This document shows, piece after piece, positions 903-35,566 of a stretch of DNA of 64,000 nucleotides. A model generated the notes under the pieces. It worked only from the letters and a program-made list of their open reading frames with translations, had not been told where the DNA came from and did not search any database. This DNA is from Squalus acanthias (lineage: Eukaryota): assembly GCA_030390025.1 (NCBI GenBank), contig CM059431.1:140742001-140806000 (forward strand), given 5' to 3'. How positions within the stretch are numbered: position 1 is the first letter of the stretch; each line of letters starts with the position of its first letter. The position numbers and the translations under genes were made by a program.

Positions 903-1073
903 CGCAGTTCCTGTATTTTACAGTCCGGGTTCCTCAGAGCCGCAGACAGTAGTTGCACTCCTGAATCTCCCAGTTTATTATTACCCAGGTCCAGAACTGT
1001 CAGTGATCGGTTTGTACTGAGAGCGGAGGCAAGTTCCTCAGCACAAGAAACTGTGAGACCATTTTCATCAAGA
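903..1073 (-). CDS. NLR gene, LRR exon (171 bp, two RI-type LRRs, phase 2-2)
   Basis: Acceptor ...tcatcctcag| at 1075-1074 and donor |gtaagt at 902-901. Translates [57 protein letters not shown]. 171 bp is the classic NLRP-type LRR exon size. Confidence 0.92.
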
Positions 1074-1241
1074 CTGAGGATGAGGGGGTGGGACAGAGAA
1101 AGAAATAACATCACGGTAAATACCCAATATTTATTAACACTATTACTTATAAGGTACAGTGCTTATTAGTAACACTATTACTGACACTAATAATAATGTA
1201 CAGTGTCAGACATCCAGTGATTATAAACACAATCTCACACA

Positions 1242-1907
1242 TAGAAAAATATAGAAACATAGAAGATAGGAGCAGGAGTAGGCCATTCGGCCCCTCGAAC
1301 CTGCTCCGCCATTCGATGAGATCATGGCTGATCATCCAAACTCAGTACCCTGTACCTGCCTTCTCCCCATATCCCTTGATACCTTTAGCTTTAAGAAATA
1401 TATCTAACTCATTCTTGAATATATTTAATGACTTGGCCTCAACTACCTTCTGTGGTAGAGAATTCCACAGGTTGACCACTCTCTGGGTGAAGAAATTCCT
1501 CCTCAACTCAGTCCTAAATGGCTTACCCGTTATCCTTAGATTATGACCCCTGGTTCTGGACTCTCCGACCATCGGGAACATTCTTCCTGCATCTAGTTTG
1601 TCCAGACCTGTCAGAATTTAATATGTTTCGATGAGATCCCCTCTCATTCTTCTAAACTCCAGCGAGTATAAGCCCAATCGACCCAATCTCTCCTCATATG
1701 TCATTCCTGCCATCACAGGTATCAGCCATGTGAATCTTCGCTGAACTCCTTCCCTGGCAAAAACAACCTTCCTCAGATAAGGCGACCAAAACTGCACACA
1801 GTACTCAAGGTGTGGTCTCACCAAGGCCCTGTACAACTGCAGCAGGACATCCCTGTTCCTATACTCAAACCCTCTCGCTATGAAGGCCAACATACCATTT
1901 GCCTTCT
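1242..1907 (-). mobile_element. CR1 LINE, 5'-truncated insertion with TCACACA target-site duplication
   Basis: ORFs 1618-1911 and 1342-1581 match the CR1 RT C-terminus, and the 3' tail is ctcctgctcctatcttctatgtttctat on the minus strand. TCACACA occurs at 1235-1241 and 1908-1914. Confidence 0.92.
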
Positions 1908-1927
1908 TCACACAGTCTGCTACTTAC

Positions 1928-2014
1928 CGCAGTTCCTGTATTTTACAGTCCGGATTCCTCAGAGCCGCAGACACTAGTTTCACTCCTGAATCTCCCAGTT
2001 CATTGCTCCTCAGT
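1928..2014 (-). CDS. NLR gene, first LRR exon (87 bp, phase 2-2)
   Basis: Acceptor ...tgtttgtgtttag| at 2016-2015 and donor |gtaagt at 1927-1926. Translates [29 protein letters not shown], in frame with both neighbouring exons. Confidence 0.9.
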
Positions 2015-2734: not shown

Positions 2735-2789
2735 GGGTTCACTGCCCCCGGTTTACCCAGGAGCCGGTCACTGTATGTTTTTCTTATAT

Positions 2790-3337: not shown

Positions 3338-5111
3338 CTCAACACCCGGCATTTGTGCAGTACGGGTCCCAGCCGCTGGAGTCCTTCACACTGAATGGAG
3401 CAGTATTGTAGGTTGAGGTGTTTTATTGTATCACAGAGTCCAAGAACATGAGACAGGACCGCACAGTCAATCGGGGTCAGTACCAAAGCACTAAATATAA
3501 GTGATTCCACAGATCCCACTGTGGCCCGAGCCAGTGCTTTATTCTGAGACTCAAATAGGTAGTGGAATGTGTTCAGGAGGTTCCTTTGACCAGTTTCATT
3601 CTCTGTTTCTCCGATCTGTCCTTCAACCTTCTCCTTCACCCAGTCAATCACTCGGCAGGTAGTTTGATGAAGAAGTTGACCCAGAAACTCCTCCAGGGGC
3701 CTAGCTGCCTGTGGGGAGGAGAGACCAGCAACAAAACGGAGAAATATCACAAATCGCCCATCTTCCTTGCTGTGGGATTCTCTAAGGAGTTTCAGGATGT
3801 CCCCGAGATCTGGAGTCAGGAATTGTGCGAGAGCGGCTACAAACTCTTGGATGGTGAGGTGCGGGAATGTGTACACCACGCTCTGGGCAGAATCATCTCT
3901 CTCCAAAAGTTCCACCATGAACCCAGACAGGAACTGGGAAGGTTGCAAATTGTACTTGATCAAATCTGCATTTCTAAACACAATCTTCTTCTCGGAGACT
4001 CCTGTGAAGGCCATCTCACCAAGCTTCAGTAACACATCACGGGGGCTTTCAATCTCTCGGCCATGGTTTTTCAGAATGTTGTAAATATAATAGGAATATA
4101 GTTGGGTGATGGTCTTGGGAACTCGCTGCTGATTCCTGTTGCTTTGTGTAAAGAAGGGGCCGAGTGAGAGCCCGAGGATCCAGCAGTAGGAAGGGTTATA
4201 GCACATGGTGTACAGGATCTCGTTCTCCTCCACGTGTTTGAAAACAACTGCTGCCACCGTCTGATCTTCAAAAAACTTGTTGAAATATTCCTTCCGTTCT
4301 TCACCAACAAATCCCAGGATTTCAGCCCAGACACTGATCTCAGCCTTTTCCAATAAATGTAATGCAGTGGGGCGGCTGGTCACTAGCACTGAACATCCTG
4401 GGAGCAGTTTGTGCTGTATTAAACTGTACACAATGTCAGACACTTCACACCAGTCTTCAGGATCTGCGCACATGTGCTGAGGTTCTGTATTTCTCCGATT
4501 GTCAGCAAAATCAATCCTGTCATTGAATTCATCCAAACCATCGAATATAAACAGCAATCCCTCGGGGTTCTTCCAGAGCTCTCCCAGAATATTCCCAAAG
4601 TAAGGATACAGATCCAGTATCAGATTCCTCAGGTTTATTCTACAGTTAATAGTGTTCAAATCCCGGAATTTAAAGCTGAAAACAAATTGAAACTGTGGGT
4701 ATATTTTCCCAGTGGCCCAGTCATAAACAATCTTTTGTACCATTGTTGTTTTTCCAATCCCAGGGACTCCGCTCACTGCTGCTGAACTCCCAGAATTGGA
4801 TCGCCAGAATAAACTCTTCATTTTCTGCAGTAAACTGCCTATCCAGGAAAAACTGCTCTGGAACAATTGATCAGTTCGGATTTTCTCCAGTTCTCTCCGG
4901 AGATGTTTCTCTCTTGACTCTTCATGGTCTCGGCCTCTTGCCAAGAGTTCATGTTCTACAAGTGTCCGATCTCGAACAGTCGAAATGACCGTTAGCTCAG
5001 CGTATCGATCAATCAGGTGGAAAATCTTAACCTTCTCCTTTATTAGGATAGTGTTCACTCTCAGTGTTTCAGTTTGTATCCGGAGTGTTTCCTTGTGTTT
5101 CTGTTGAACAT
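3338..5111 (-). CDS. NLR gene, NACHT exon (1774 bp: pre-NACHT segment, NACHT, WHD, HD2, first LRR); NLRP3/NLRC3-like family member
   Basis: Contains ORF 3334-5058. Walker A GVPGIGKTT, Walker B LLFIFDGLDE, sensor-1 VLVTSR, CYNPSYCWI, YTFPHLTIQEFVAA, FLRFVAGL. Acceptor ctgttctaattgaag| at 5113-5112 (phase 1, DVQQKHKETLR...) and donor |gtaact at 3337-3336 (phase 2). Confidence 0.96.
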
Positions 5112-5374
5112 CTTCAATTAGAACAGACAGAAAGTGGTTTCAATGTTAATTGTATTGACATAAAAACATCTTGGAAATAACACTTTGTTATTCAGTAAAC
5201 TGTGACACGATTTAGTCCACAGCTTAATTACAGGCGTGTACAGAAAATTAAAACTAAGTGAATGAGAAATGTTTTTGATATTGTCTCGTCCCACTGTTAT
5301 TATCAGGTCCTGGGCATGTTATCCGGAGTATTGTGTGTGCTGGGAGATGGACAGACTGTGAATGGACAGAAGTG

Positions 5375-5907
5375 CTATTCGGCATCCTATTTGACCCTGA
5401 ACTGAGCTTCTGACCCATATCCTCGCCATCACCAAGAGTGCCCCATTCTATCTCTGCCATATCGCCCGTCTCCGCCCCTGCCTCAGCTCATCTGTTGGAG
5501 GAATCCTCATCCTTGCCTTTGTTACCTCCAGACACAACTATTCCAATGTTCTCCTTTGGGCCTCCCACCTTGCACTCAGCCAAAAACATGCTGTCCATAT
5601 CCTAACTCGCACCGAGTCCCTTTCACCCATCATCACTCTGCTCCCTGACCGACATTGGCTCCTGGTCCGGCAACATCTCAATTAAAAACTTCTCATACTT
5701 GTTTTCGAAACCTTCCATGTCCTCGCCCCTCCCTATGTCTGCAGCCTCCTCCAGCCCTACAACACTCGAGATCTCTGCTCTCCACCAAGTCTGGCCTCTT
5801 ACGCATCTCAGATTTTCATAACTACACCTTTGGTGCCCGTGCCTCTAGCTTTCCAGGATGTCAGCTCCCTCAAATGTCAATTCCCTCCCTCAACCTCACC
5901 ATCTCTA
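5375..5907 (+). mobile_element. L2 LINE, decayed 3' ORF2 fragment
   Basis: catatcgcccgtctccgcccctgcctcagctcatct...gcctttgttacctccagacacaactattccaat reads IARLRPCLSSS...AFVTSR.NYSN, the L2 RT C-terminal motif. Similar to 30185-30760 on the other strand. Confidence 0.8.
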
Positions 5908-5964
5908 GAGATTGTATCTCTGCAGACAAATTGCTCTCCGTGTATATATACTGTGTAATAGATT

Positions 5965-6025
5965 CCCTCAATGTACCTCTACTTGACGAACGGGCAGCAG
6001 CTCCGAAAGCTCGTAATTTTAAATA
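5965..6025 (+). ncRNA. Minimal hammerhead ribozyme motif in the 5' pseudo-LTR (core mutated, TTGACGA)
   Basis: ttgacga-a-cgggc-agca-gctcc-gaaa-gctc fits the CUGANGA / stem II / GAAA layout known for Penelope pLTRs, with a C>T change in the core. Confidence 0.65.
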
Positions 6026-6102
6026 AAACTGTTGGACTATAACCTGGTGTCGTGCGACTTCTCATTTTTGTCCACCCCGTCCAACACCGGCATCTCCGCA
6101 TC

Positions 6103-8780
6103 ATGACCACTATTGACACCACAAACTGCCGGCTCAAAGTGGAGAGAATCTCCAAGAAGTTCGCACATATCGACACAGACATCAAGTTTCTACAGAGATG
6201 CAAGAAAGCAGACAAGATTCCGAAAGGACTACAGATCACGAACCCACTCAAGTCGACATACAACACAGACTACGCTGAGAGACTTTGCCGTCGTACCTCT
6301 CGAACACTCCTCAACCATCTCGTACACCAGCTCTACAGCAGACGCTGCAACCTCGAAACCAAGATAGAGTCCATGCTCTCAGCCTGTGCTCAGGATACAG
6401 CAGACCAGCTACGAGACACCGCCAAACAGACGAGGCAACGGAACTACGCTTCCTACATGAGCATCAAAAACAGGAAGCTTGAGAAACCCGGCATCACCAT
6501 CAGCAGCAACCAAGCCTCCCCCGGTACCACGGTTGCAACCACAGGGAAGTCCATCGTCAACCTGTCGGACCACACTCTTCAACCAGACGAAATCGAAGTT
6601 CTCAGCCAAGGGCTCAATTTCTGCCCCAGCACCAAAATGGACCCAATCGGTCTTGCGGCAGACACAGAGTAATTCATCAGTAGAATGAGGATCCGGGAAT
6701 ACTACCACAAATCCCAAGATGTCAGCAACAAACCCAATGAGACAATCAATGATCCGGAACAGCAGACAGAGGGAACCGCAGTGCAGCAACCGAAGAAGAA
6801 AGAGTCAAATTGGACCCCTCCGGAGGGTCGCTGGGCTAAGCTTGAAATGTATGCTCAAGCTGTCAGAAGATGCATCAACGCCAGATTCATCAGCCGCACA
6901 CAAGACAGTCCAGAATGTCAGCCGAGCACAACGCAACGCCATCCATGCTCTCAAGACCAACCGCAACATTGTCATCAAACCAGCGTACAAAGGAGGAGCC
7001 ATCGTCATACAGAACAGAATGGACTATTGCAAAGAAGCATTCCGACAACTGGACAACCAGGAACACTACAGACAGTTACCCGCAGATCCGACCAAAGAAC
7101 ACACCCGCCAACTCAATAGACTGATCAAGGCCTTCGATCCAGACCTTCAAAACATCCTACGCGCTCTCATCCCACGTACTCCCCGCGTAGGAGACTTCTA
7201 CTGCATCCCAAAGATACACAAAGCCAACACACCCGGACGTCCTATCGTATGAGGCAACGGAACCCTGTGTGAGAACCTCTCTGGGTACGTCGAGGGCATC
7301 CTGAAACCCATCGTACAGGGAACCCCCAGCTTCTGTCGCGACACTACAGACTTCTTGCAGAAACTCAGCACCCATGGACCAGTTGAACCAGGAGCACTCC
7401 TCACCACGATGGATGTATCGGCACTCTACACCAATATCCCCCACGAGGACGGCATCGCTGCGACAGCCTCAGTGCTCAACACCAACAACAGCCAATCTCC
7501 AGACGCCATCCTACAACTCATCCGCTTCATCCTTGACCACAATGTCTTCACCTTCGACAACCAGTTTTTTACCCAAACACACGGAACAGCCATGGGGACC
7601 AAATTCGCATGCCAATACGCCAACTTCTTCATGCACAAGTTCGAGCAAGACTTCTTCGCTGCACAGGACCTCCAACCAACGCTGTACACCAGATACATCG
7701 ACGACATTTTCTTCCTTTCGACCCACGGCGAAGGATCACTGAAAGGACTACACGATAACATCAACAGGTTCCATCCCACCATCAAACTCACCATGGACTA
7801 CTCCTCAGAATCGGTTTCATTCTTGGACATACGAATCTCCATCAAAGACGGACACCTCAGCACTTCACTCTACCGCAAGCCCACGGACAACCTCACGATG
7901 CTCCACATCTCCAGCTTCCACCCTAACCACGTTAAAGAAGCCATCCCCCATGGACAAGCCCTGCGAATACACAGGATCTGCTCAGACGAGGAGGAACGCG
8001 ATGGACACCTACGGACGCAGAAAGACGCCCTCGTAAGAACGGGATATGACGCTCGACTCGTCAATCGACAGTTCCGACGGGCCACAGTGAAAAACCGCAT
8101 AGACCTCCTCAGAAGGCGAACATGGGACACAACCAACAGAGTACCCTACGTCGTACAGTACTTCCCCGGAGCAGAGAAACTACGCCATGTTCTTCGCAGC
8201 CTTCAACATGTCATCGATGACGACGAACACCTTGCTAAGGCCATCCCCATGCCTCCACTACTCGCCTTCAAGCAGCCGCCTAACCTCAAAAGTACCATAG
8301 TTCACAGCAAATTACCCAGCTGTCAGGAGAACAGCGACCAAGACACCACACAACCCTGCCACGGCAACCTCTGCAAGACAGGCCAGATCATCAACACAGA
8401 TACCAACATCACACGTGAGGACACTACCCACCAGGTACATGGTACATACTCATGTGACTCGGCCAACGTTGTCTACCTCATATGTTGCAGGAAAGGATGC
8501 CCTGGAGCATGGTACATCGGCGAGACCATGCAGACACTGAGACAACGTATGAACGGACACCTGCGCAACAATCGCCAGGCAGGATTGTTACGTCCCAGTC
8601 GGGCAACACTTCAGCAGTCAAGGACATTCAGCCTCGGATCCGCGGGTTAGCGTTCTCCAAGGTGGCCTTCAAGACACACGACAACGCAAAATCATCGAAC
8701 AGAAACTGATAGCCAAGTTCCGCACCCATGAGGACGGCCTCAATAGGGATTTCGGGTTCATGTCACGCTACAGAACGTGA
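6103..8780 (+). pseudogene. Penelope-like polyprotein (reverse transcriptase plus GIY-YIG endonuclease), disrupted
   Basis: ATG at 6103 (MTTIDTTNC...). Motifs IKPAYKGGAIVI, PKIHK..PGRPIV, MDVSALYTNIP, GTAMGT, RYIDDIF, FLD, LYRKPT, VVYLICC..WYIGET..LRQRMNGH. Stops at 6670-6672 and 7250-7252, frameshifts near 6900 and 8560, terminal TGA at 8778-8780. Confidence 0.92.
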
Positions 8781-8877
8781 CTCGACATCGTTGTCGGTCT
8801 TTCCAGTTTTAAAAAAAACACAAAAAAAACCAAAGAACCAAAAAAAAAGTTAAAAGCTGAACTGCAGATGGCAACAT

Positions 8878-11114
8878 AGGAACATAGAAAATAGGTGCAG
8901 GAGTAGACCATTCGGTTATTCGAGCCTGCACCGCCATTTAATGCGTTCATGGCTGAACATCCTACCTCAGTACCCCATTCCTGCTTTCTCGCCATACCCC
9001 TTGATCGCCCTAGTTGTGAGTATTATCTCTAACTCACTTTTGAATATATTTAGCGAACTGGCCTCAACAACCTTCTGTGGTAGAGAATTCCACAGATTCA
9101 CCACTCTCTGGATGAAGAAGTTCCTCCTCATCTCACTCTTAAATGGCTTCTCCTTTATCCTTAGACTGTGACCCCTGGTTTTAGTTTTCCCTAACATTGG
9201 AAACATTCTACCCGCATCTAATTTGTCTAAACCAGTCAGGATTTTAAACGTCTCTATAAGATTCCCCCCTCATTCTTCTGAACTCCAGAGGATGCAAGTT
9301 CAGTTGATCCAGTCTTTCTTGATATGTCAGTCTGGCCATCCCAGGAATCAATCTAGTGAACCTTCGTTGCACTCCCTCAATAGCAAGAATGTCCTTCCTC
9401 AAGTTAGGAGACCAAAACTGCACACAATACTCCAGGTGTGGCCTCACCAAGGCCCTGTACAGCTGTAGCATCACCTCTCTACTCCTGTACTCAAATCCCC
9501 TTGCTATGAAGGCCATCATGCCATTTGCTTTCTTGACTGCCTGCTGCACTTGCCTTCCCACCTTCAGTGACTGATGTACCATGACGCCCAGGTCTCGTTG
9601 CACCTCCCCTTTCCCTAATCTGCCACCATTCAAGTAATAGTCTGCCTCCCTATTTTTACCACCAAAGTGGATAACCTCACATTTATCCACATTGTACTTC
9701 ATCTGCCATACATTTGCCCATTCACCCAACCTGTCCAATTCACTCTGTAGCCTCCTAGCATCCTCCTCATTGTGCACACTGCCTCCCAATTTAGTGTCAT
9801 CCGCAAATTTGGAGATATTACAATTAATCCCTTCGTCCAAATCATGAATATATAATGTAAACAGCTGGGGCCCCAGCACCGAACCTTGCGGTACCCCGCT
9901 GGTCACTGCCTGCCATTCTGAAAAGTACCCATTTACTCCTACTCTTTGTTTCCTGTGTGCCAACCAGTTCTCAATCCACGTCAACACATTACCCCCAATG
10001 CCATGTGCTTTAACTTTGCACACCAATCTCTTGTGTGGGACCTTGTCGAAGGCCTTCTGAAAGTCCAAATACACCACATCTACTGGTTCCCCCCCGTCCA
10101 CCCTATTGGAAACATCCTCAAAAAATTCCAGAAGATTTGTCAAGCATGATTTCCCTTTCACAAATCCATGCTGACTTGGACCTATCATGTCGCCACTTTC
10201 CAAATGGTCTGTTATGACATCTTTAATAATTGATTCCATCATTTTAACCACCACCGATGTCAGGCTGACCGGTCTATAATTCCCTGCTTTCTCCCTCCCT
10301 CCTTTTTTAAAAAGAGGGGTTACATTAGCCACCCTCCAATCCTTCGGAACTGATCCAGAGTCTAAGGAATGTTGGAAAATGATCGTCAATGCATCCACTA
10401 TTTCCAAGGCCACCTCCTTAAGTACTCTGGGATGCAGACCATCAGGCCCTGGGGATTTATCAGCCTTCAGTCCCATCAATTTCCCCAACACCTTTTCCCC
10501 ACTGATAAGGATTTTCCTCAGCTCCTCCCTCTTACCAGATCATTTGATCTCTTTTATTTCCGAAAGGTTGTTTGTGTCCTCCACAGTAAACACCGAACCA
10601 AAGTACTTGTTCAATTGATCTGCCATTTCTTTGTTCCCCATTATGACTTCCCTGTTTCTGACTGCAGGGGACCTACGTTTGTTTTTAATAACCTCTTTCC
10701 TTTTACATATTTATAGAAGCTTTTGCAGTACGTTTTAATGTTCTCCGCAAGCTTCCTTTCATATTTTATTTTCCCTGCCCTAATCAAACCCTTCGTCCTC
10801 CTCTGCTGAGTTTTAAAGTTCTCCCAGTCCCCGGGTTTGCTGCTACTTCTGGCCAATTTGTATGCCACTTCCTTGCTTTTAATACTATCCCTGATTTCCC
10901 TTGTTAGCCATGGTTCAGCCAACTTCCCTTTTTTATTTTTACGCCAGACAGGGATGTACAATTGCTGTAGTTCATCCATGCGATCTCTAAATGTCCGCCA
11001 TTGCCCTTCCACTGATAACCCCTTAAATATCGCTTGCCAATCTAACCTCGCCAATTCACGCCTCATACCCTCAAAGTTGCCCTTATTTAAGTTCTGGACC
11101 ATGGTCTCTGAATT
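8878..11114 (-). mobile_element. CR1 LINE, 5'-truncated (~2.2 kb, RT domain), nested in the Penelope 3' region
   Basis: ORF 9244-10491 has [30 protein letters not shown] and KFADD. Further pieces at 10641-11147 and 8967-9206. A possible AACAT duplication lies at 8873-8877 and 11115-11119. Confidence 0.93.
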
Positions 11115-11257
11115 AACATTTGACACGTTGGACCCCCTGTGACCCACCTCATTGTCTTAGCTGTCCTCTGATGTGTCTTTGATGTAATGCCTTCCTAACA
11201 GATTGTATCTCTGTAGACAAATTGCTCTCTGTGTATATATACTGTGTAATAGATTCC

Positions 11258-11315
11258 CTCACTGTACCTCTACCTGGCGAAGGGGCAGCAGCTCCGAAAG
11301 CTCGTAATTTTAAAT
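11258..11315 (+). ncRNA. Minimal hammerhead ribozyme motif in the 3' pseudo-LTR (core mutated, CTGGCGA)
   Basis: ctggcga-a-ggggc-agca-gctcc-gaaa-gctc. Stem II GGGGC/GCTCC pairs with one G-U, and the core has an A>G change. Confidence 0.65.
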
Positions 11316-12073
11316 AAAACTGTTGGACTATAACCTGGTGTTGCGCGACTTCTCATTTTTGTTCACCATCTCTAAACAGCCGTTCCACTGTTATTGTATC
11401 AGGATTTGGACATATTATCTGGGGTATTGTGTGCAGAGAGAGAGACAGACTGTGAATAGGTTAGTGTTAAATTACGGTCATTTCAGGACTCGGGCAGGTT
11501 ATCTGGGGTATTACCTACACTTCTATAGTCACCTGATCAAAGTTAAAGGATACTGCCATTTTGAAGGTAATGGGGAATAAAAGATGATGCAAGATATTAG
11601 GAGTTTAGGTTGAGGGGTTTGATGTATTTTGTTTGAGCAAAAGACATCGGTATTGAAACGTTTTAATGGAATTCACAACATTATTGCAGGAAACAATGAC
11701 TAAAATAATTAATAATGCAGAATATTGAAAATCAGAAGTGAAGGGAAATCAGGATTTTTTTTTACCAAAGGGTAATAGAGCAGGGAACAAGTTACCAGGG
11801 AAGGACATTAATAGAGCAGTGTAATTGGGGACCGGATACAATTGAACGTGTTTGTGTGGATACACAGAGGAGGGATGGGTGGGTTCATTTTTGTAACAGG
11901 GACAGCCTTGTGGGGCCAAATGGACTTTTCCTCCTAATCATTCCCTAGATAAGTTGTGCTTCAGAATTTGCGAACATTTTTGGAGCAGTTTTACACATAA
12001 ATTCATTGAATGTGTTTTTATAATAGTCCTTTCATATCACCAATTCAAATTAGATCTTTTGCCCACTTGATTA

Positions 12074-13160: not shown

Positions 13161-13162
13161 TG

Positions 13163-13242
13163 TGGAGTGCACCTAACTGGATAGCTCTTTCAAAGATTCG
13201 GCACAGGCACGGTGGGCCCAATGACCTCCTACGTCATTCTAT
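13163..13242 (+). mobile_element. SINE/CR1-type 3' tail fragment
   Basis: ctggatagctctttcaaaga..cggcacaggcacggtgggcccaatgacctcct resembles the CR1-type tail at ~25840-25897. Confidence 0.5.
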
Positions 13243-13597
13243 ATCGGATCCTTGACAGCAGACCCTAACCGCGGTTTCCCACTTCTCCCATGTTCCTATC
13301 GTTGCCTCAATGGCAGCAAACCTCACACTCCGGAACACTCACACCATCCAGGATGCTGGAAGTGCAACTAGGAAAAGCCATTCTCGAGCTCAGTGGGATT
13401 TTCGGCAATAATAGAGACAATGATGCAGAATTTGAACAAAGTCAATCACAGTCTAAAACTTGTATATAGTAAAGATACAAGAAAAAGGCCAATATAACAA
13501 CGGAACCGAGGCAGGGGGGTGGAGTTAAGATACAGATCACCCTGATCTAATTAAATGGAGGAACAGACTCGAGGGGCTGAATGACCTCCTCCTATGT

Positions 13598-21724: not shown

Positions 21725-24700
21725 GGATAAATCGAGCGGGAGGCCCAGAGAGTGTGCAGACTGGAACAGCGAGGAGGCGAAGTACCTCCAGTGAAAACAA
21801 CAGCGTCAAAACAGCTAAAGTGACGTCACAATCAAGGAAGGAGCTGATTGCTGAGTAGCTGGTAGTGTTTCTAGTTAATAATCTATTAAGTAAAGTTATG
21901 GCATGGCAGCTCAGTCCCTTGGAATGCACATCCTGTGCCATATGGGGACTCCAGGGCGCTTCCCGTGTCCTGGACAACCAGATGTGCAGGAAGTGTCGTC
22001 AGCTGGAGGAGCTCGAACTCCGGATTTTGGGCTTGAGCAGCAGTTGCAGTCACTGCGGTGCATCAATGAGGCTGAGAGCTTCGTGAATAGCACGTTTGAG
22101 GAGGTGGTCACCCTGCAGCTAAAGAGTGTGCAGGCAGAAAGGGAATGGGTGATCACCAGACATAAAAGGAGGACCAGGCAGTTAGTGCAGGAGTCCCGAG
22201 TGCATCTCGCTCCCTAACCAGTATTCAGTTCTGAGTATTGGTGAGGGCGACGGTTCCTCTGGGGAGTAAAACCAGAGCCAAGTCCACAGCACCACTGGTG
22301 GCTCAGCTGTGTGGGGGTGGGGGGGGGGGGCAGGAAGAAGAGTGGGAGAGCAATAGTGTTAGGGGATTCGAAAGTTAGGGGAGCAGACAGGCGTTTCTGT
22401 GACCACAGACGTGACTCCAGGATGGTATGTTACCTCCCTGGTGCCAGGGTCAAGGATGTCACTGAGCAGCTGCAGGACATTCTGAAGCGGGAGGGTGAAC
22501 AGCCAAAGGTCGGGGTTTATATTGGTACCAACGACACAGGTAGAAAGAGGGATGAGGTCCTGCAGGCAGATTTCAGGGAACTAGAAAAGAGATTAAAAAG
22601 CAGGACCTTAAAAGGTAGTAATCTCTGGATTACTCCAGGTGCCACGCGCTAGTGAGTATAGAAATAGGAGGATAGCATAGATGAATGCGTGGCTGGTGAG
22701 ATGGTGCAGGAGGGATGGCTTCAGATTCCTGGGTCATTGGGACCCGTTCTGGGGGAGGTGGGACCTGTACAGGCCAGATGGGTTGCACCTCAACAGAGCT
22801 GTACCAATGTCATCGTGGGGAGGTTTGCTAGTGCTGTTGGGGAGGGATTAAACTAATTTGGCAGAGGGATGGGCAGCAGGATGTAACATTAGAAAGGGGA
22901 AATAAAGTGCTCTAAGGATTGGGAGAGGCAGAGAGCACTAAAGTAAGAAATAGTAAGGTATTAAGTGGGGTCAAACTAAGAGAGAATACAGGATGGTCTA
23001 AGATGGGTTTACAGTGTATGCATGTGAACGCACGAAGCATAGTAAACAAGGTAAGTGAGCTACAGGTACAAATAGCCACATGGGAAGATGATGTGGCAAT
23101 AACGGAGACTTGGCTCAAAAAAGGTTGGATTAGGTATTAAATATTCTGGGTTATAAAGTATTCAGGAAAGATAGGAGGTGGTGTGGCAGTATTGGTTTGG
23201 GAGAATGCTACAGTGCTGGAGACAGAGTATGTCCTGGGGGGCTCAAGGACAGAATTTATATGGCTAAAGCTAGAAAATAACAGCGGTGCCATTACACTAC
23301 CAGGTGTATTCTACAGAACACCAATATTGGGAAAGATGTGCATACGAGCAAATTTGCAGAGAAATTACAGAGAGGTGCAAGAACTATAGTGTAGTAATAT
23401 TGGGGGACTTTAAATATCCTAATATAGACTGGGTTCATAATACTGTAGTGTTAATGGCAGAGAAGGGGAAGAATTTCTGAAGTGTGTTAAGGAGAACTTT
23501 CTTGATCAGTATGATTCTGGCCCGACGAGGTAGGAGGCATTACTGGATCTGGTTCTGGGGAATGAGGTACGTCAAAGTGGAACACGTTTCAGTAGGCGAA
23601 CATTTCGGGAACAGTGATCATAGAATCATAAGGTTTGGATTAGTTATGGAAAAGGACAGAGAGCAATCTAGAGTTAAATACTTAATTGGTGGAAGGCCAC
23701 TTTCAGTGGAATGAGAACGGATCTGGCCCGGGTAAACTGGAATCAAAGATTGGCAGGCAAAACTGTAATGGAACAATGGGCTGCCTTTAAAGAGGAATAG
23801 TTTAGGTACAGTTCAGGTACATTCCCACTAGGGGGAAGGTCAGGTTAACTAAAGTCGAAAGTCTGGGCTCCCTTGATGACGAAAGAGATAGAAAATATGA
23901 TGAAGCAGAAAAAGAGCGCGTATGACAGATGTCAAGTTGCAACTACATCTTAGAATCAGGCTCTATATAGAAAGGTCAGAGGAGAAGTGAAAAAAATGAG
24001 GGTATGAGAATAGAATGGCAGCCAACATAAAAGGTAATCCAAAAGTCTTCTGCAGGCATATAAATAGTAAAAGGGTAGTAAGAGGAGGGGTGGGGCCGAT
24101 TACATAGATACATAGATACATAGAACAGTACAGCACAGTACAGGCCCTTCGGCCCTCGATGTTGTGCCGAGCATTGTCCGAGACCAAGATCAAGCTATCA
24201 CACTCCCTATCACTCTGGGACCCAAAAGGAGACATATGCATGAAGGCAGAGGGTATGGCTGAGGTACTGAATGAGTACTTTGCATCTGTCTTCACCAAGG
24301 AAGAGGGTGCTGCTGCAGACATAGTGAAGGAGGAGGAAGTGGAGATACTGGATAAAATAAAAGTTGATTAAAAAGAGGAATTAGAAAGGCTGGCTGTACT
24401 AGATAAATCAGAGAGCGTATGGGATGCACCCTAGGATGCTAAGGGAATTGGGGGCGGAAATTGCAGAGATACTGGCCATAATATTCCAATCCTCCTTAGA
24501 TACGGGGGTAGTGCCAGAGAACTGAATAATTGCAAATGTTACGCCATTGTTCAAAAAAGGGTATAAAGACAAAGCCAGCAACTACAGGCCAGTCAGTTTG
24601 AACTCAGTAGTGGGGAAGCTTTTAGAAACAGCAATCAGGGACAAATTTAACAGTCTCTTGGATAGGTGTGGGTTAATTAAGGAAAGCCAGCACAGATGTA

Positions 24701-25900
24701 TTTAAGGCAAATCGTGGTTAACTAACCTGATTGAGTTTTCTAATGAGGTAAAAGAGAGGGTTGATGAGGGTAATGCGGTTGGTGCAGTGTACATGGATTT
24801 CCAAAAGGCGTACAACAAATTGCCACAAAATAGGCTTGCCATCAAAGTGGAAGTCCATAGTATAGAAGGGACGGTGGCAGCTTGGATACGGAATTGGCTA
24901 AGTGACAGAAAACAGAGTAGTGGTGAACGGTTGTTTTTCAGACTGGAGGAACGTATAATGGTGTTCACTTCGGGTCAGTTCTAGTACCACTGCTTTTCTT
25001 GATATATATTCATGACTTTGACGTGGGTGTACAGCGCACAATTTCAAAATTTGCAGATGAAACAAAACTTGGAGTATAGTGAACAGTGAGGAGTGTTATA
25101 GACTTCAGGAAGACACAGAAAGGCTAGTGATATGGGCGGACACGTGGCAGATGAAATTTAACGCAGAAAGTGTGAAGTGATACATTTTGGTTGAAAGATT
25201 GAGGAGAGGGAATATAAACTAAAGGGTACAATCCTGAAGTGGGTGCATGAGCAGAGAGACCTGGGGGTATGTGTGCACACATCCTGGGCTTCAGAAGTAG
25301 AGGTATAGAGTACAAAAACGTGGAAATTATGATGAACCTGTATAAAACACTGGTTCAGCCGCAACTGGAGTACTGTGTTCAATTTTGGGCGCCAGTGTAG
25401 GAAGGATGTGAAGGCCTCAGAGAAACTGCAGAAAAGATTTATGAGAGTGATTCCAGGAATGAGGGACTTCAGTTAAATTGATAGACTGGGGAAGCTGGGG
25501 TTGTTCTCCTTGGAGCAGAGAAGATTGAGAGGAGATTTGATAGAGGTGCTAAAAATCATGATGGGCCTGGACTGAGTAGATAGAAGGAAACTGTTCCTAT
25601 TGGCAGAATGGTCGAGAACCAGAGGACACAGATTTAATGTGATTGGCAAAAGAACCAAAAGCGACATAAGAAAAAACTTTTTTTACGCAGCGAGTGGTTA
25701 AGATCTGGAATGCACTGCCTGAATGGGTGGTGGAGGCAGACTCAAAGACGGCTTTTAAAAACAGAGTTGGATAAGTAGCTGAAGGAAATAATTTTGCAGG
25801 GCTACGGGGAAAGGGCGGGGGAGTGAGACTAGCTGAGATGCTCTTGGTGTGAGCCGGCACGGGCTCGAATGGCCGCCTTCCGTGCTGTAACCATTCTATG
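21725..25900 (+). mobile_element. Near full-length CR1 LINE of a second, older family (ORF1 zinc finger/esterase plus heavily disrupted ORF2)
   Basis: CTSCAIW..CRKC at ~21925-21995, IVLGDS, IGTND, DGLHL, HVNARSI, ITETWL, NSDH, YMDFQKAY, and a 3' tail ending ~25900. Confidence 0.9.
24103..24216 (-). mobile_element. Short CR1-type 3' tail inserted in antisense into the CR1 ORF2
   Basis: (catagata)n tail followed by cagcacagtacaggcccttcggccc. Removing it restores gggccgatta|gggacccaaaagga (GPIRDPKG). Confidence 0.8.
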
Positions 25901-27162
25901 ATTTACAAGGCAAAAGTCATGAGTGTGATGAAATACTTTCCACTTGCCTGGATGACTGCAGCTCCAACAACAGTCCAGAAGCTCAACACCATCCAAGACA
26001 AAGCAGCCCGCTTGATTGGCATCCCATCCATCACCTTAAACAATCACTCCCTCCACCCCCGGCGTACCGTGGCTGCAGTGTGTACCATCTACAAGATGCA
26101 ATGCAACAACTCACCAAGGCTTCTTCAGCAGCACCTCCCAAACCCACAACCTCCAAATTCCCCTGCAAGTCACACACCAACCTGACTTGGAAATATATCG
26201 GCCGTTCCGTCATTGTCGCTGGTTTAAAATCCTGGAACTCCCTTCCTATCAGCACTGTGGGAAAACCTTCACCACACGGACTGCAGTGGTTCAAGAAGGC
26301 GGCTCACCACCACCTTCTCAAGGGCAATGAGAGATGGGCAATAAATGCTGGCCTTGCCAGCGACAACCACATCCCAGGAACCAATAAGAAATTATCGTTT
26401 CCCTTGTAAATATCGTGGCAAGGTAATTATTTTATATTTCTGCCATTTCACTGTCATTACCAGTAAGTTCATCGTGTGCATCCCTTAGTGTCCCAATCCC
26501 TATCCTGATTTTTCTTTTCGTTATTGATGTGTCTGAACTAAACTTTTACTCATTCTTTTTATATTCCTTGATAATTGAATGTTGTAGTTTCTCTCTGCAC
26601 TCGTTTTTTGACTGCTTTTGTATTGCCTTCCTTCATCTTCTACTTTTTTGTACATGCATTTTACTTCAGGTTCAATTTTGCCCTTATTTCTTCATTAACA
26701 TGTGATTTGTCATTATTTCACTCAGCGCAATGTTAGAGCAGAAAACATTCACAGTTCATTTTAACTGTTCTACCAATGATTATACTGCGTTGTTCCATTT
26801 CGGTCTTTGTTTCCTGTAATGCAGGTTTGGGAAATTACAAATGTGTTTCCATCAGTAATTACATTGGGTCTAAGAAGACTCCTGAATTAAAGGAGTATTC
26901 TTTAGTAGAATACGGTACTCTCTTTCACTACCATTCGGAAGATAACCAATAACTTCCTTGTCACCCTGAACATTGTCTTTTCCTCACATCTGTCCATGGA
27001 TTAATGTTCTCTTGTGTGAACATCTGTACATCATCTCAGATCGAACACTTTCTAACGTCTCCTTCTGTATTTCAACATTTCAATGTTTCGCATTTCTCCA
27101 CCTTTTACCCTGTAGTTTATGGTGGGACAGATTTCTATGGGCACAGGGAATCGTTAACATGT

Positions 27163-27622
27163 AGAAAGAAAGACAGCCTTGTATTTATATACCGCCTTTC
27201 ACGACCACCGTCTCAAAGCATTTTACAACCAATTAAATACTTTTGGAGTGGAGTCCCTGTCGTAATGTGGGAAACACGGCAGCCAAATTGCACACAGAAA
27301 GCTCCCACAAACAGCAAGTTGATAAAGACCAGATAATCTGTTTTTGTTAAGTTGGTTGAGGGATAGATATGTGCCAGGACGCCGGGGATAACTCCCCTAC
27401 TCTTCTTCGAAATAATGTCATGGGCTCTTTTACATCCACCCGAGAGAGCAGACGGTTTAACGTCTCATTAGAAAGAAGGCAACTCCGACAGTGCAGCATC
27501 CCTTAGTGCTGCACTGGAATGTCAGCCCAACTTTTTGTGCTCAAGTCCCTCGAGTGGGACTATGAACCCATAACCTTCTGACTCAGAGGCGAGTGTGCTA
27601 CTGACTGAGCCACAGCTGACAT
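27163..27622 (-). mobile_element. tRNA-derived SINE with Deu-domain-like core and L2-type tail (SacSINE1/DeuSINE-like)
   Basis: The minus strand starts gtcagctgTGGCTCAGTCAGtagc (A box) and GGTTCATAGTCC (B-box-like), has a central tgagacgttaaaccg core, and ends gaaaggcggtatataaatacaagg..tctttctttc. Confidence 0.8.
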
Positions 27623-27750
27623 GGCGCAATGCACTGCTCTTTACTGGTCAGCCGAGAGCATCTGTGCAGCACATAGGAGGTTTGTAATGAGATTCACACG
27701 GTGTCGCAAAAGAGCCAAGTATGCCTGAGACAAGTTATTACATCAATAAT

Positions 27751-28672
27751 CTGCCAGGTGTGTTTGCGACTTCACTGCGTACCAGACTCCTACCAGGTGT
27801 GTATGGGGTTTCACAGTGTATCAGGATCCTGCCAGGTGTATATGGGGTTTCACAGTGTATCAGGATCCTGCCAGGTGTATATGGGGTTTCACAGTGTATC
27901 CGGATCCTGCCAGGTGTGTATGGGTTTTCAAAGTGGATCAGGATCCTGCCAGGTGTGTATGGGGTTTCACAGTGTATCAGGATCCTGCCAGGTGTGTATG
28001 GGGTTTCACAGTGTATCAGGATCCTGCCAGGTGTGTATGGGGTGTCAAAGTGTATCAGGATCCTGCCAGGTGTGTTTGCGACTTCACTGCGTACCAGACT
28101 CCTACCAGGTGTGTATGGGGTTTCACAGTGTATCAGGATCCTGCCAGGTGTATATGGGGTTTCACAGTGTATCAGGATCCTGCCAGGTGTATATGGGGTT
28201 TCACAGTGTATCCGGATCCTGCCAGGTGTGTATGGGTTTTCAAAGTGGATCAGGATCCTGCCAGGTGTGTATGGGGTTTCACAGTGTATCAGGATCCTGC
28301 CAGGTGTGTATGGGGTTTCACAATGTATCAGGATCCTGCCAGGTGTGTATGGGGTGTCAAAGTGTATCAGGATCCTGCCAGGTGTGCATGGGGTTTCACA
28401 GTGTATCAGGATCCTGCCAGGTGTGTATGGGGTTTCACAGTGTATCAGGATCCTGCCAGGTGTGTGTGGGGTTTCACAGTGTATCAGGATCCTGCCAGGT
28501 GTGTATGGCGTTTCACAGTGTATCAGGATCCTGCCAGGTGTGTGTGGGGTTTCACAGTGTATCAGCATCCTGCCAGGTGTGTATGGGGTTTCACAGTGTA
28601 TCAGGATCCTGCCAGGTTTGTATGGCGTTTCAAAGTGTACCAGGATCCTGCCAGGTGTGTATGGGGTTCACA
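27751..28672. repeat. 39-bp minisatellite, about 23-24 copies
   Basis: Unit ctgccaggtgtgtatggggtttcacagtgtatcaggatc, seen as 13-aa periodicity in the overlapping ORFs. Confidence 0.97.
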
Positions 28673-28934
28673 ACTGATCGCAATGTGCACCTGGATTAAC
28701 TGGAGTAATAAAAATTTGCAAATTTACAAATAATTCAGTAATATGAGCGAAAAGTAGCTGCAATTTACGCCGAGGACTTGTAGGTTGAATATCCAAATAA
28801 ACCTTTTTTCTGCTTCCGCACATTTGAACTTCTGATTCCCAGATTCTAACAATCTCTAACCAAACGGCTACAGTCAAACATTCTGATTCTCAGAAGTGAA
28901 GCAAACAGTTTGAAATCTCCATGTTATCACTTAC

Positions 28935-29000
28935 CTTGCAGGTGCCTGGGTACTTCGGATAAACCTCGTGCGATTTTCACGTGAACAAATATATCAGGAC
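28935..29000 (-). CDS. NLR gene, 66-bp linker exon (phase 1-1)
   Basis: Acceptor ttgatttaaacag| at 29002-29001 and donor CAAG|gtaagt at 28934-28933. Translates (G)PDIFVHVKIARGLSEVPRHLQ(D) and joins the NACHT exon in frame. Confidence 0.82.
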
Positions 29001-29103: not shown

Positions 29104-29275
29104 CGTGTTCCTGTATTTCTTTCAGTATTTTGTCCAACTTTGGCACCCCATGACGCATTTTCACAAAGGATTCCCACATCACCCTTCGGGCCCTAGAGCC
29201 TGTCTCCATCACCAGATTTAGGAGAAGTTTGGAACTGTCCGCCCGGTTTCCCTTCTCCACGAGCTCAGTGAATTT
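29104..29275 (-). CDS. NLR gene, second half of the CARD-like N-terminal domain (172 bp, phase 0-1)
   Basis: Acceptor atttattcttcacag| at 29277-29276 and donor |gtacgg at 29103-29102. Translates KFTELVEKGNRADSSKLLLNLVMETGSRARRVMWESFVKMRHGVPKLDKILKEIQEH(G). Confidence 0.85.
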
Positions 29276-30132: not shown

Positions 30133-30184
30133 CTCGACCAACACTGGTGAAACCGGGGTAGTGGTGGGTTGTACAAGTGGCCAG

Positions 30185-32310: not shown

Positions 32311-32859
32311 TTGCCTCAATTTTCAACATTTAACGGCTGGTAGCAGATCGTCCGTCCATTATGCAACCGTCGATTATCATTTCCATTTAATTCTTTCCCA
32401 TTAAAAGGCAACTGACAGAAAATTACAGGCTGCTTGAATGTAATTTGCTAAAGTGCTGTCCCAGGGAGTGACGCTCCACGACAGGTTCTCTCGCCCTTAT
32501 TGCGCCTCTGCCGAAGTTGGAATTGTCCCACTGTGAAGTATGGGGGAGAAAATAAAGCCTACACGGCATCGGTCTTTCAATCCTCACAGTTTTCGGGTTA
32601 GTTTCCCTGTTTGGGTCTCATACAGTTTAATTTATTTTGTTTTTGATCTTCAAATGCCGCTCATATTCTCCTCAAAAATTTTTGTTGTCTCTCAGTTCCT
32701 TAATTTACTTTAAGTAATTCTCCGGTCTGTCAACTCACGACCTTGCCTCTAGCTCCTGCCTGTTGCCTCTGGTCTCTCCATTTCCCATTCCCACTAAAAC
32801 TGTTTCCCTTTATTTTTAGTCCACACAAGAGTTATGCCCGAACCGTTCCCCTTTCCAGG

Positions 32860-35205
32860 TATTATGTAACGAGAAAGGATTAATTAGCAATCTTGTTGTA
32901 CGAGGCCCCTTGGGTCAGAGTGATCATAATATGATAGACTTCATCATTAGGATGGAGAGTGAAGTAGTTGAATCAGAGACTAGGGTCCTGAATTTAAATA
33001 AAGGAAACTACGATGGTATGAGGCGCGAATTGGGTAGGATTGATTGGGAATGTCACTCAAGGGGTTGACTGTGGATAGGCAATGGCAAACATTCAAAGAC
33101 TGCATGGATGAACTGCAGAATTTGTTCATCCCAGTGTGGCATAAGAATAAAACAAAAGGGGTGACTCAACCATGGCTAACAAAGGGAAATTAGGGATAGC
33201 ATAAGATCCAAGGAGAGGGCATATAAATTGGACAGAAAAAGCGGTAGCCCTGAGGATTGGGAGCAGTTTAAGTTTCAACAAAGGAGGACAAAGTGATTAA
33301 TTAAGAAGAGGAAAATAGAATATGAAAGTAAGCTTGCTGGGAACATAAAAACTGACTGTAAGAGCTTTTATAGATATGTGAAGAGAAAAAGATTAGTGAA
33401 ATCAAGTGTAGGTCCCTTGCAGTCAGAAGCGGGGGAAGTTATAATGGGGAACAAAGACATGGCAGACCAATCAAATGCATATTTTGGTTGTGTCTTCACA
33501 AAGGAGGACACAAATAACCTCCCAGAGATGTTGGAGAACATACGGTCTGATGAAAGGGAGGAACTGAAAGAAATCAGTATTTGCAGGGAAATGGTGTTAG
33601 GGAAATTGACGGGATTGAAGGCCGATAAATCCCCAGGGCCTGATAATCTACATCCGAGGGTACTTAAGGAAGTGGCCCTAGAAATAGTAGATGCATTGCT
33701 GATCATCTTCCAACATTCGATGGAAGCTGGAACTGTACCCATGGATTGGAGGGTAGCTAATGTTACCCCACTATTCAAAAAGGGTGGTAGAGAGAAAGCG
33801 GGGAATTACAGACCGGTAAGCCTGACATCGGTATTGGGGAAAATGCTAGAGTCCATTATAAAGGATGTAATAGCTCAGCACTTGAAAAACAGTGACAAGA
33901 TCGGACAAAGTCAACATGGATTTACAAAAGGTAAATCGTGCTTGACTAATCTACTGGAATTTTTTGAGGATGTAACTGGGAAAATAGATAAGGGAGAACC
34001 AGTAGATGTGGTGTATTTGGACTTTCAAAAGGCTTAGAATAAGGATCCGCATAAGAGATTAGCGTGTAAAGTTAAGGCACATGGGATTGGGGGCAAGGTA
34101 TTGACTTGGATAGAGAACTGGTTGGCGGACAGAAACCAGAGAGTAGGAATTAATGGTCTTTTTCCGAGTGGCAAGCAGTGACTAGTGGGGTACCGCAGGG
34201 ATCGGTCCTTGGACCCCAGCTATTCACAATATACATTAATGATCTAGATAAGGGAACTAAATGTAATATCTCCAAGTTTGCAGATGACACAAAGTTGGGT
34301 TGGAGTGTGTGCTGCGAGGAGGATACCGAGAAACTCCAGGATGATCGACAGGTTGGGTGAGTGGGCAGAAGCGTGGCAGATGCAATATAACGTGAATAAG
34401 TACGAGGTTATCCACTTTGGTGTCAAAAACAGAAAGGCAGACTATTATCTGAATGGCAATAGATTGGGAGAAGGGGAAGTGCAACGAGACCTGGGTGTCC
34501 TTGTGCACCAGTCGCTGAAAGTAAGCATGCAGGTGCAGCAGGCGGTGAAGAAGGCAAATGGTATGTTGGCCTTCATAGCGAAAGGGTTTGAGTATAGGAA
34601 CAGGGATGCCCTGCTGCAGTTGTACAGGGCCTTGGTGAGACCACACCTTGAGTACTGTGCGCAGTTTTGGTCGCCTTATCTGAGGAAGGATGTTCTTGCC
34701 ATGGAAGGAGTTCAGCGAAGATTCACAAGGCTGATACCTGGGATGGCAGGAATGACATATGAGGAGAGATTGGGTCGATTGGGCTTATATTCGCTGGAGT
34801 ATAGAAGAATGAGAGGGATCTCAGCGAAACATATAAAATTCTGACAGGTCTGGACAAACTAGATGCAGGAAAAATGTTCCCGATCGTCGGAGAGTACAGA
34901 ACCAGGGGTCATAATCTAAGGATAACGGGTAAGCCATTTAGGACAGAAATGAGTTAGAATTTCTTCACCCAGAGAGTTGTCAACCTGTGGAATTCTCTAC
35001 CACAGAAGGTAGTTGAGGCCAAGTCATTAAATATATTGAAGAATTAGTTAGATATATTTCTTAAAGCTAAAGGTATCAAGGGATATGGGGAGAAGGCACG
35101 TACAGGGTACTGAGTTTAGATGATCAGCCATGATCTCATCGAATGGCGGAGCAGGCTCGAGGGGCCGAATGGCCTACTCCTGCTCCTATCTTCTATGTTT
35201 CTATG
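32860..35205 (+). mobile_element. CR1 LINE, 5'-truncated (~2.3 kb, end of APE plus RT plus 3' UTR)
   Basis: PLGQSDHNM, then ORFs 33378-34037, 34178-34360 ([15 protein letters not shown]) and 34278-34844. The tail is ctcctgctcctatcttctatgtttctatg. Same subfamily as 1242-1907. Confidence 0.94.
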
Positions 35206-35399
35206 ATACTGACGGATCCGCTGAGAATTTTCAACTCTTTGTATCATTGTTTCAGATTCACAATATTTTCACTTTTATCCATATGTTTCCTATTTGGCCT
35301 GTTTCTCTTCTGTAACATTCTGTGATTCTAAGATTTGATTTCCTGTCAGTTCTGTGATGTTTGAATAATCCAGACTCATTCTGTGTCCCTCCCACTTAC

Positions 35400-35566
35400 C
35401 CGATGATCTTCTCCACTGAAATGCCTCTCGTATGTTAACAACGAGCTGACTCCGTCCACCTCTCCTTCAATCGCCTGTTCCAGTCTGTCCTGGTAGAATT
35501 TCGTAAACTGGAACAGTTGGTAATCGTCGCACTTTGTCAAGAACTCAGTGATTGTAGTGTTCGGAT
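35400..35566 (-). CDS. NLR gene, first half of the CARD-like N-terminal domain (167 bp, phase 1-0)
   Basis: Acceptor ttttctccatttgtgttcacag| at 35568-35567 and donor CGG|gtaagt at 35399-35398. Translates PNTTITEFLTKCDDYQLFQFTKFYQDRLEQAIEGEVDGVSSLLTYERHFSGEDHR. Confidence 0.87.

Follow-up and report, generated by a model that had tools for sequence, protein, structure and literature searches.

A putative CARD–NACHT–LRR receptor gene of Squalus acanthias: one copy of a greatly expanded elasmobranch family, probably without its start exon

CARD-bearing NLRP3-like proteins and an NLRP-related expansion are already known from sharks, as far as the accessible parts of two papers report. Billman et al. 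(2024, PMC11258412) described white shark NLRP3-like proteins with an N-terminal CARD, and 21 NLRP3/12-like proteins in that species; in the available portion of the paper, the CARD occupies one sentence of domain annotation, its fold and function are absent, and the N-terminal domain is reported as not found in lungfish. In the accessible text of Tan et al. (2021, PMC8455134), the whale shark has 43 NLRs, and an NLRP-related expansion of 17 members is proposed to stand in for the NLRPs. A 2026 preprint (10.64898/2026.07.03.736391), in the part open to us, reports Callorhinchus as having neither a CARD-bearing NLR nor ASC, and considers direct LPS sensing by caspase-1. Outside subscription papers, our literature search found no paper with hundreds of shark NLRs or with the fold of the N-terminal domain.

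The locus described here lies in a window of 64,000 nucleotides from the Squalus acanthias genome. The original prediction, made from these letters, read it as an intact receptor gene with a CARD-like domain, and the novelty that this implied is reduced because CARD-bearing NLRP3-like proteins have been reported for the white shark (PMC11258412, as far as its accessible text goes). Our analyses suggest that the locus is a member of an expanded CARD–NACHT–LRR family which has recently lost its ATG exon, a reading that we regard as reasonably probable.

Exon structure and receptor class

The locus consists of six minus-strand exons, every one with an AG acceptor and a GT donor. All the predicted sites, with the lengths (167+172+66+1774+87+171 nt) and the junction phases (R/K, G/GT, G/AT, AG/A and CG/T, the slash marking the junction), were confirmed. 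The features are as follows.

35400..35566, minus strand: 167-nt exon A (phase 1 to 0), coding for the additional helix and the first half of the predicted CARD
29104..29275, minus strand: 172-nt exon B, coding for the remaining half of the predicted CARD
28935..29000, minus strand: exon C, 66 nt; linker
5112..28934, minus strand: 23.8-kb intron filled by fragmented retroelements (LINE-type and Penelope-like) and a tandem repeat of 39 bp
3338..5111, minus strand: 1774-nt exon D, coding for a FISNA-like region, the NACHT, winged helix and HD2, and the first LRRs
1928..2014, minus strand: exon E, 87 nt; one LRR
903..1073, minus strand: 171-nt exon F, coding for two LRRs; below window position 1 the gene runs on
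37760..37795, minus strand: point at which resemblance to the paralogues' first intron ends, the same breakpoint against 4/4 paralogues
38850..64000, and on to about 78241 beyond the window, no strand: 40-bp satellite array, occupying the expected 5' end of the gene

When joined, the six exons give 811 codons (about 812 had been predicted), with no stop in one frame against 44 and 53 in the other two, and this lies far above the level of chance. The joined N-terminal 135 residues are matched by 103 of 120 homologues and run ungapped over all three junctions in annotated shark proteins, at no more than 82% identity. Exon B is covered by contigs of relatives, and from two contigs of one relative a net 103 nt is absent, which equals the B–C intron in length; the RNA nature of these contigs is a guess, and they do not show the window copy. 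No transcript record was listed for the NACHT exon.

Pfam recognises NACHT (E 7e-38), NOD2_WH (E 4e-13) and NLRC4_HD2 (E 1e-16) in exon D, which carries the Walker A motif GVPGIGKT and the Walker B motif DGLDE. The nearest solved structure to this exon is NLRP3 (E 8e-50), in agreement with the NLRP-like NACHT originally proposed, while the NOD2-type chain 5irl scores E 1e-25 and the 37 matching PDB sequences do not include NLRC4. The FISNA-like region is weak in relatives (E 0.01–0.14). The gene reaches its 3' end beyond the window, where five further usable exons lead to a TGA terminus. One downstream 171-nt LRR exon has the donor GG in place of GT, and skipping it yields an open frame of 1066 codons up to the stop. 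By its sequence, the locus thus reads as an NLR with a NACHT, a winged helix, an HD2 and C-terminal LRRs up to the TGA.

The N-terminal domain and its family

The fold of the N-terminal domain was modelled on the homologue P0132 (78% identical) rather than on the window sequence, and residues 31–130 reached a pLDDT above 90. In VIA-align, the model matched the CARDs of NLRC4 (Z 11.7, rmsd 2.9, 89 aligned) and CARD8 (Z 11.5, rmsd 2.0, 87 aligned), values of Z below 13 that may also arise in helical bundles from a common arrangement. CARD chains made up 32 of the 33 top rows, the first death domain following at rank 34 (Z 7.5), and the 50 structure rows listed held no PYD chain, an absence that does not amount to exclusion. 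Foldseek also placed CARDs at the top, yet no match reached E 0.001. The homologue model therefore ranks with the CARDs, as expected from the proposal of a six-helix fold closer to a CARD than to a PYD. The additional N-terminal helix of the original prediction is present in the model, but it is confined to approximately TITEFLTK, because DYQLFQ opens the first helix of the CARD itself. We consider the domain to be a CARD with one additional N-terminal helix, as modelled.

Sequence searches returned a fainter signal. No Pfam death-fold family rose above its cut-off, and the two window half-exons had no match; the Pfam CARD appeared weakly in 11 of 33 family members (best E 0.003), and PF00619 was precomputed on two ray members. 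The CARD lies below the Pfam cut-offs, and the proteins have therefore been named for PYD receptors or labelled CARD-less. Against PDB sequences, the family profile retrieved only unrelated weak matches and no death fold; it reaches the teleost protein P0332, which has a clear Pfam CARD. ESM Atlas neighbours were CARD clusters at 0.88, which is a lead only. A genome-wide PYRIN search found no match in the window, with the proviso that profiles also under-detect the N-terminal domain. PF27087, precomputed on many homologues, was rejected as the N-terminal domain, being absent from N-terminal-only proteins and co-occurring with LRRs.

The lineage expansion that had been predicted is borne out genome-wide. 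Start-exon motifs number 282 in the assembly, a count that haplotype duplicates may inflate, against none in a reversed control. In the same genome, 150 of 385 exon A candidates and 73 of 688 NACHT candidates were scored; the latter are 87–92% identical (the window itself excepted), and 67 of the 73 are free of stops. A NACHT tree of 32 rows, built without a mammalian outgroup or teleost NACHT, places the window in a nine-row shark–ray clade (support 100/100; 85–89% identity to four shark rows) and includes the family in Callorhinchus. CARD-bearing relatives occur in rays, chimaera, lungfish, amphibians, bichir and sturgeon. The window locus has the two-exon N-terminal domain and linker exon found across the family; the CARD-splitting intron measures 6.1 kb, and such a split, already noted in the original prediction, is the norm. 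The locus is accordingly one copy of a hugely expanded elasmobranch CARD–NACHT–LRR family.

The missing start exon

An ATG exon was found in all four paralogues examined, a few hundred bases past the point that matches 37760..37795. At the window locus, no family ATG exon was found in window coordinates 35567–184000 (148 kb upstream), where the best local score was 27, against 24–27 for shuffles and 173–186 for positive controls. From 140.668 to 141.50 Mb of contig C7, the start-exon motif had no match at 0–1 mismatch, this motif search being the one applied beyond 184000. Between 35567 and 38875 there are only two short alternative ATG-plus-donor candidates, neither resembling any homologue, and the first remaining in-frame ATG is residue 78 of the joined frame, in exon B. 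The satellite extends over 39 kb, and the breakpoint of intron similarity lies 1.1 kb away; an assembly can be wrong at such a place. No N gaps occur in the window or in the 120 kb upstream. Matches about 116–117 kb upstream to the sequence preceding the start exon of paralogues were rejected as a displaced 5' end, since their orientation is opposite and the exon is absent; in sequence, they look like dispersed repeats.

The claim of an intact gene is thus doubtful because the start exon appears to be missing; moreover, one downstream LRR donor is GG, and the six exons contain neither a start nor a stop codon. The coding exons, including the NACHT exon, nevertheless carry no sign of decay so far. 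Private changes amount to 11 non-synonymous and 13 synonymous (ratio 0.25), inside the range of 0.12–0.64 for five paralogues in a comparison that extracted 6 of 8 loci. Conserved sites are changed at 8 of 369 positions (homologue median 5) and, within the CARD, at 3 of 53 (median 2), and the Walker motifs are undamaged. Given this lack of decay, the loss of the start exon would be recent, or another first exon would be in use.

The retroelements of the 23.8-kb intron are fragmented into short frames, as had been reported. Among 43 hand-paired paralogues, the spacing between exon B and the NACHT exon has a median of 6.9 kb and is at least 24 kb in three, and the 24-kb intron is at the upper end of the family range. 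No other NLR exons were found inside it. Because homologues do not match them, the long open frames of the 39-bp, 51-bp and 40-bp repeats were discarded as exons.

Explanations and comparison with described receptors

By analogy with NLRC4 and NLRP3, an intact member of the family would rest in an ADP-bound, closed state; a trigger sensed via the HD2 and LRRs would let the NACHT oligomerise, and the clustered CARDs would directly nucleate the caspase-1 CARD filament with no PYD step. We infer that the family CARD may recruit caspase-1 or ASC directly, and a caspase-1 with a CARD is encoded in the S. acanthias genome. Complex prediction of a homologue CARD with this caspase-1 CARD, run without an alignment, returned "no answer" (score 0.00), which favours neither side. 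The window copy, deprived of its start exon, would be silent, or its translation would begin at Met78, within the CARD, and yield a NACHT–LRR protein incapable of signalling; it is probably disabled, and may be a young casualty of birth-and-death evolution.

An intact and expressed window copy, whose first exon would be novel or lie very far away, or would be hidden by an assembly error at the satellite, seems rather unlikely to us. The 1066-codon frame that opens when the GG-donor exon is skipped, the private dN/dS of 0.25 with unbroken Walker motifs and the satellite adjoining the breakpoint are all consistent with it. The 148 kb upstream without a family start exon, the single place at which intron similarity ends against all four paralogues and the gap-free assembly argue for a real loss. 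It is quite improbable that exons A–C, giving a CARD-only product, and the NACHT exon belong to two genes, with the 24-kb join unspliced. Databases do hold short CARD-only or tandem-CARD models, and no read was found to join 28935 to 5111; against this, homologues run ungapped from the linker into the NACHT exon, the phases agree, the intron holds no other NLR exon, and three of the 43 paralogues have equal or longer spacing.

That the N-terminal domain belongs instead to the PYDs or the death domains, or is an unrelated bundle of helices, is extremely improbable. The Pfam search without a death-fold family above its cut-off, the PDB-sequence search without a death fold and the Foldseek threshold would fit such a domain, but CARDs head both structure searches, the family profile reaches P0332, and the ESM Atlas lead points the same way. 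An alternative with a sizeable minority chance is that the family CARD does not recruit caspase-1 but signals via the ASC CARD or via RIPK2, with NF-kB activation of the NOD1/2 kind, or has a regulatory role. The CARDs of NLRC4, CARD8, ARC, ASC, caspase-1 and NOD1 fall within about one Z unit, so that fold scores do not separate the subtypes; PYD exons (11 matches of 13 candidates) are present in the genome, and ASC may therefore exist there; and the family entropy of 0.83 in the CARD, against 0.29 in the NACHT core, is unexpected for one fixed partner. On the other hand, the NACHT is far closer to NLRP3 than to 5irl, and the family is present in Callorhinchus, reported to be without ASC in the accessible text of the preprint.

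Returning to CARDs that act on caspase-1, we tentatively suggest that the two-exon CARD could mark an ancestral jawed-vertebrate CARD–NLR clade, spanning sharks and the groups with CARD-bearing relatives named above, with ASC-independent inflammasomes formed by direct recruitment of caspase-1, expanded to hundreds in sharks, as NLR-C was in teleosts, and overlooked by domain searches. If so, the report of no CARD–NLR and no canonical inflammasome in Callorhinchus, as it stands in the available part of the preprint, would be wrong. The Callorhinchus protein P0389 carries the N-terminal domain by the family profile (96 bits), its single-sequence fold being unusable (pLDDT 41). A CARD there, despite that preprint, makes direct caspase-1 recruitment testable; P0389 offers a test of the caspase-1 activation route in cartilaginous fish, and of whether the NLRP ancestor had a CARD before a PYD. 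The single window copy, one of hundreds, carries little weight beside the family.

The elasmobranch models named "NACHT, LRR and PYD domains-containing protein 3/12-like" (P0016 of Heptranchias, P0106 of Carcharodon) share the order of parts with the window, at 82–89% identity to its NACHT exon and no more than 82% over the N-terminal 135 residues. These automatic NCBI names imply a PYD, whereas the domain there appears to be a CARD, and the window copy lacks their MAEG-type first coding exon. Mammalian NLRP3, otherwise distant in sequence, provides the nearest solved NACHT and resembles the window family in its FISNA-like region, which is weak in the latter, but has a PYD where the window family has the predicted CARD; its ribonuclease-inhibitor-type LRRs are encoded in 171-nt exons, the size seen in the window. 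NLRC4, the model of direct caspase-1 recruitment, shares the CARD–NACHT–LRR order, with its CARD among the top structural matches, and differs in its LRR type. The white shark CARD–NLRs, as described in the accessible text of PMC11258412, have the same layout as the window family; white shark P0106 and P0465 carry its N-terminal domain and are, we infer, proteins of that study. The family profile also finds the domain in lungfish P0297 (48 bits), where that paper, in its available portion, found none. The whale shark expansion is likewise lineage-expanded and NLRP-close, and P0462 of that species falls in the window's clade; it has 17 members against hundreds here, and its N-terminal domain is undescribed in the accessible part of PMC8455134. 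Set against the 43 whale shark NLRs and the 21 white shark NLRP3/12-like proteins given in the parts of these papers available to us, the 282 motifs of S. acanthias represent a copy number roughly tenfold above that of the white shark.

Splice model and N-terminal domain

The six exons placed by the original prediction were confirmed with AG/GT ends, and they join into a stop-free frame of 811 codons; the two alternative frames contain 44 and 53 stops.

Exons of the window gene (window coordinates)
35566-35400, minus strand: exon A, AG/GT ends
29275-29104, minus strand: exon B, AG/GT ends
29000-28935, minus strand: exon C, AG/GT ends
5111-3338, minus strand: large exon with NACHT, winged-helix and HD2 domains (domain search), AG/GT ends
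2014-1928, minus strand: fifth exon, AG/GT ends
1073-903, minus strand: sixth exon, AG/GT ends

Walker A and Walker B are intact in the NACHT exon. The splice model is supported because homologues match the joined N-terminal 135 residues gap-free over all three junctions (103 of the 120 best protein matches align there, the best at 82%). In relatives, contigs from four sequencing runs, presumed to be RNA, map onto exons B and C, and two of these contigs omit a net 103 bases, the B-C intron length, which bears on splicing in relatives rather than in this copy. The introns contain broken reverse-transcriptase frames; the 24-kb intron is long, though not unique (3 of 43 paralogues reach 24 kb; the median spacing from CARD exon to NACHT, paired by hand, is 6.9 kb).

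Among the repeats, the element at 6043-8650 on the plus strand, which we take to be Penelope-like, encodes a reverse transcriptase and a weak GIY-YIG, split into several frames. Two LINE fragments in separate introns (1251-1911 and 34545-35204), oppositely oriented, are 96% identical across 661 bp. Homologues give no support for the long open frames of two tandem repeats as exons (27751-28672, 39-bp unit, 23.7 copies; 31133-32311, 51-bp unit, 23.1 copies).

The two half-exons of the putative CARD matched no Pfam family; of the 33 sequences aligned, 11 showed a weak Pfam CARD. The structure was predicted from a 33-row alignment for Mustelus P0132 rather than for the window itself, to which it is 78% identical across 134 residues, and its pLDDT exceeds 90 at residues 31-130. 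When this model was compared with 48,161 chains, CARDs took 32 of the 33 top rows, and the first death domain stood at rank 34 (Z 7.5). The CARDs of NLRC4 (Z 11.7, rmsd 2.9, 89 aligned) and CARD8 (6k9f; Z 11.5, rmsd 2.0, 87 aligned) and caspase-1 (Z 10.8) all fall below Z 13, where scores can reflect an arrangement common in helical bundles. Judged by titles and a further match, the top nine Foldseek hits are all CARDs, none reaching E 0.001. Three weaker lines also point to a CARD: the Pfam result, a profile match to a clear teleost CARD and, as no more than a lead, ESM Atlas neighbours at 0.88. On the modelled fold, the earlier reading of the domain as a CARD is right. The additional N-terminal helix guessed at the same time corresponds to predicted helix 23-33 of P0132, modelled at lower confidence (pLDDT 71) and taken as extra because alignments to CARD chains begin near residue 33-40.

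A family expanded in sharks and present beyond them

The window lies on a contig of 160 Mb in a 3.7-Gb genome. Named matches among the best 120 proteins are from sharks, 81-89% identical, mostly 'NACHT, LRR and PYD domains-containing protein 3-like' or '12-like'. For the NACHT exon, a first look at the S. acanthias genome gave 688 candidates, of which 73 were scored; these are 87-92% identical, the window itself excepted, and 67 are stop-free. Candidates number 441 for exon B and 385 for exon A (150 scored for each), and a 25-base start-exon motif occurs 282 times (control, 0). Because unplaced contigs may duplicate haplotypes and so inflate these counts, 'a few hundred' copies is the safe reading. 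Two members, one per strand and with N gaps close by, lie 64-78 kb below the window (L015, L016). Across the family the CARD, HD2 and LRR vary more than the NACHT core, which fits diversified sensors; such variability of the CARD would not be expected with a single fixed partner.

A search with the family profile yielded 136 cluster representatives, and among those with names are rays, chimaera, lungfish, caecilians, newt, frogs, bichir and sturgeon. With a CARD-only profile their scores run from 96 bits (Callorhinchus P0389) down to a weak 14 bits (frog). After other amphibians, a caecilian member is closest to shark and ray proteins (~50%). In a 32-row NACHT tree (P0016 dropped, no mammalian outgroup), the window falls within a 100/100 shark-ray clade. 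Two long proteins of bamboo shark (Chiloscyllium), P0304 and P0342, carry the family CARD C-terminally, and the ray models P0121-P0126 have it in tandem copies. In database models P0311 and P0229, a partial family CARD is fused to C2H2 zinc fingers or a PRY domain; these may be mis-joined predictions.

The two ends of the window copy

Below the window the 3' end is complete: two exons of 171 nt, two of 168 nt and a final exon containing TGA bring the frame to 1066 codons up to the stop. One more 171-nt LRR exon (L009 near 8030; G000:C7:140740030) has the donor GG, not GT; it can be skipped in frame, and read-through reaches a stop after 76 codons.

The 5' end does not bear out the original description of the gene as intact. 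Because exon A begins in phase 1, an upstream ATG exon is needed. All four paralogues examined have one, a few hundred bases past an intron segment common to the window; similarity of the window to all four stops at ~37775. At the expected place lies 1.1 kb of unrelated sequence (37775-38850), with no match within 264 kb of sequence searched nor in other loci. No start exon was found in 148 kb upstream (score 27 against 24-27 for shuffles and 173-186 for positive controls), and the first in-frame Met remaining is residue 78, within the CARD. A paralogue start exon (L041 ~3500-3570) has a one-base deletion after its first ATG, with later ATGs in frame.

An assembly error could possibly explain the absence: a 39-kb satellite (40-bp unit, higher-order 120 bp) begins 1.1 kb past the similarity break and fills 38850-64000, continuing to ~78241 (L017, L018). 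It is also possible that the copy uses a new first exon. Against loss stands the condition of the NACHT exon, whose private changes (11 non-synonymous, 13 synonymous) give a ratio of 0.25, similar to the five paralogues compared (L004 and L007 left out), while conserved-site changes are just slightly over the median. Nevertheless, a recent loss of the start exon fits best, and the gene is probably a young 5'-truncated copy.

Possible signalling partners and known receptors

The mechanism proposed for intact members is based on the biology of NLRC4 and NLRP3: they would act as nucleotide switches, oligomerising upon a trigger, and their clustered CARDs may nucleate caspase-1. The S. acanthias genome encodes a caspase-1 with a CARD. 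ASC or RIPK2 are also possible partners; fold scores fail to separate CARD subtypes. The NLR cluster on C7 to which the window belongs also contains seven of the 11 PYRIN-domain exons in the genome, one of them with a stop (G000:C7:141.96-142.01 Mb and 144.36-144.49 Mb; L032, L033, L035-L039). Elsewhere (G000:C21:11.86-13.32 Mb), six clustered CARD exons come after a PYD exon; several are near-identical in score, and copies lie on unplaced contigs. Caspase matches at G000:C3:98369110, 98327745 and 113666117 each cover ~170 profile positions within a single frame; two contain stops, and they are possibly processed copies.

The CARD-NACHT-LRR architecture is already in print: white shark is reported to have NLRP3-like proteins bearing a CARD (PMC11258412). 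An expansion of an NLRP-related family is described for whale shark (PMC8455134). Our literature search found no family count in the hundreds and no fold for the N-terminal domain. For Callorhinchus, a preprint reports 98 NLR proteins but neither a CARD-NLR nor ASC (10.64898/2026.07.03.736391). Callorhinchus P0389 carries the family CARD, which Pfam recognises as a CARD only at E 0.034. The hidden CARD thus occurs in Callorhinchus (P0389, P0230) and lungfish (P0297), species for which papers report the absence of CARD-NLRs or of an N-terminal domain. The window copy belongs to a known kind of gene, of which it is probably a young and 5'-truncated member. Its closest solved NACHT structure is that of NLRP3 (E 8e-50), and the CARD of NLRC4 is among the best structural matches to the P0132 model.
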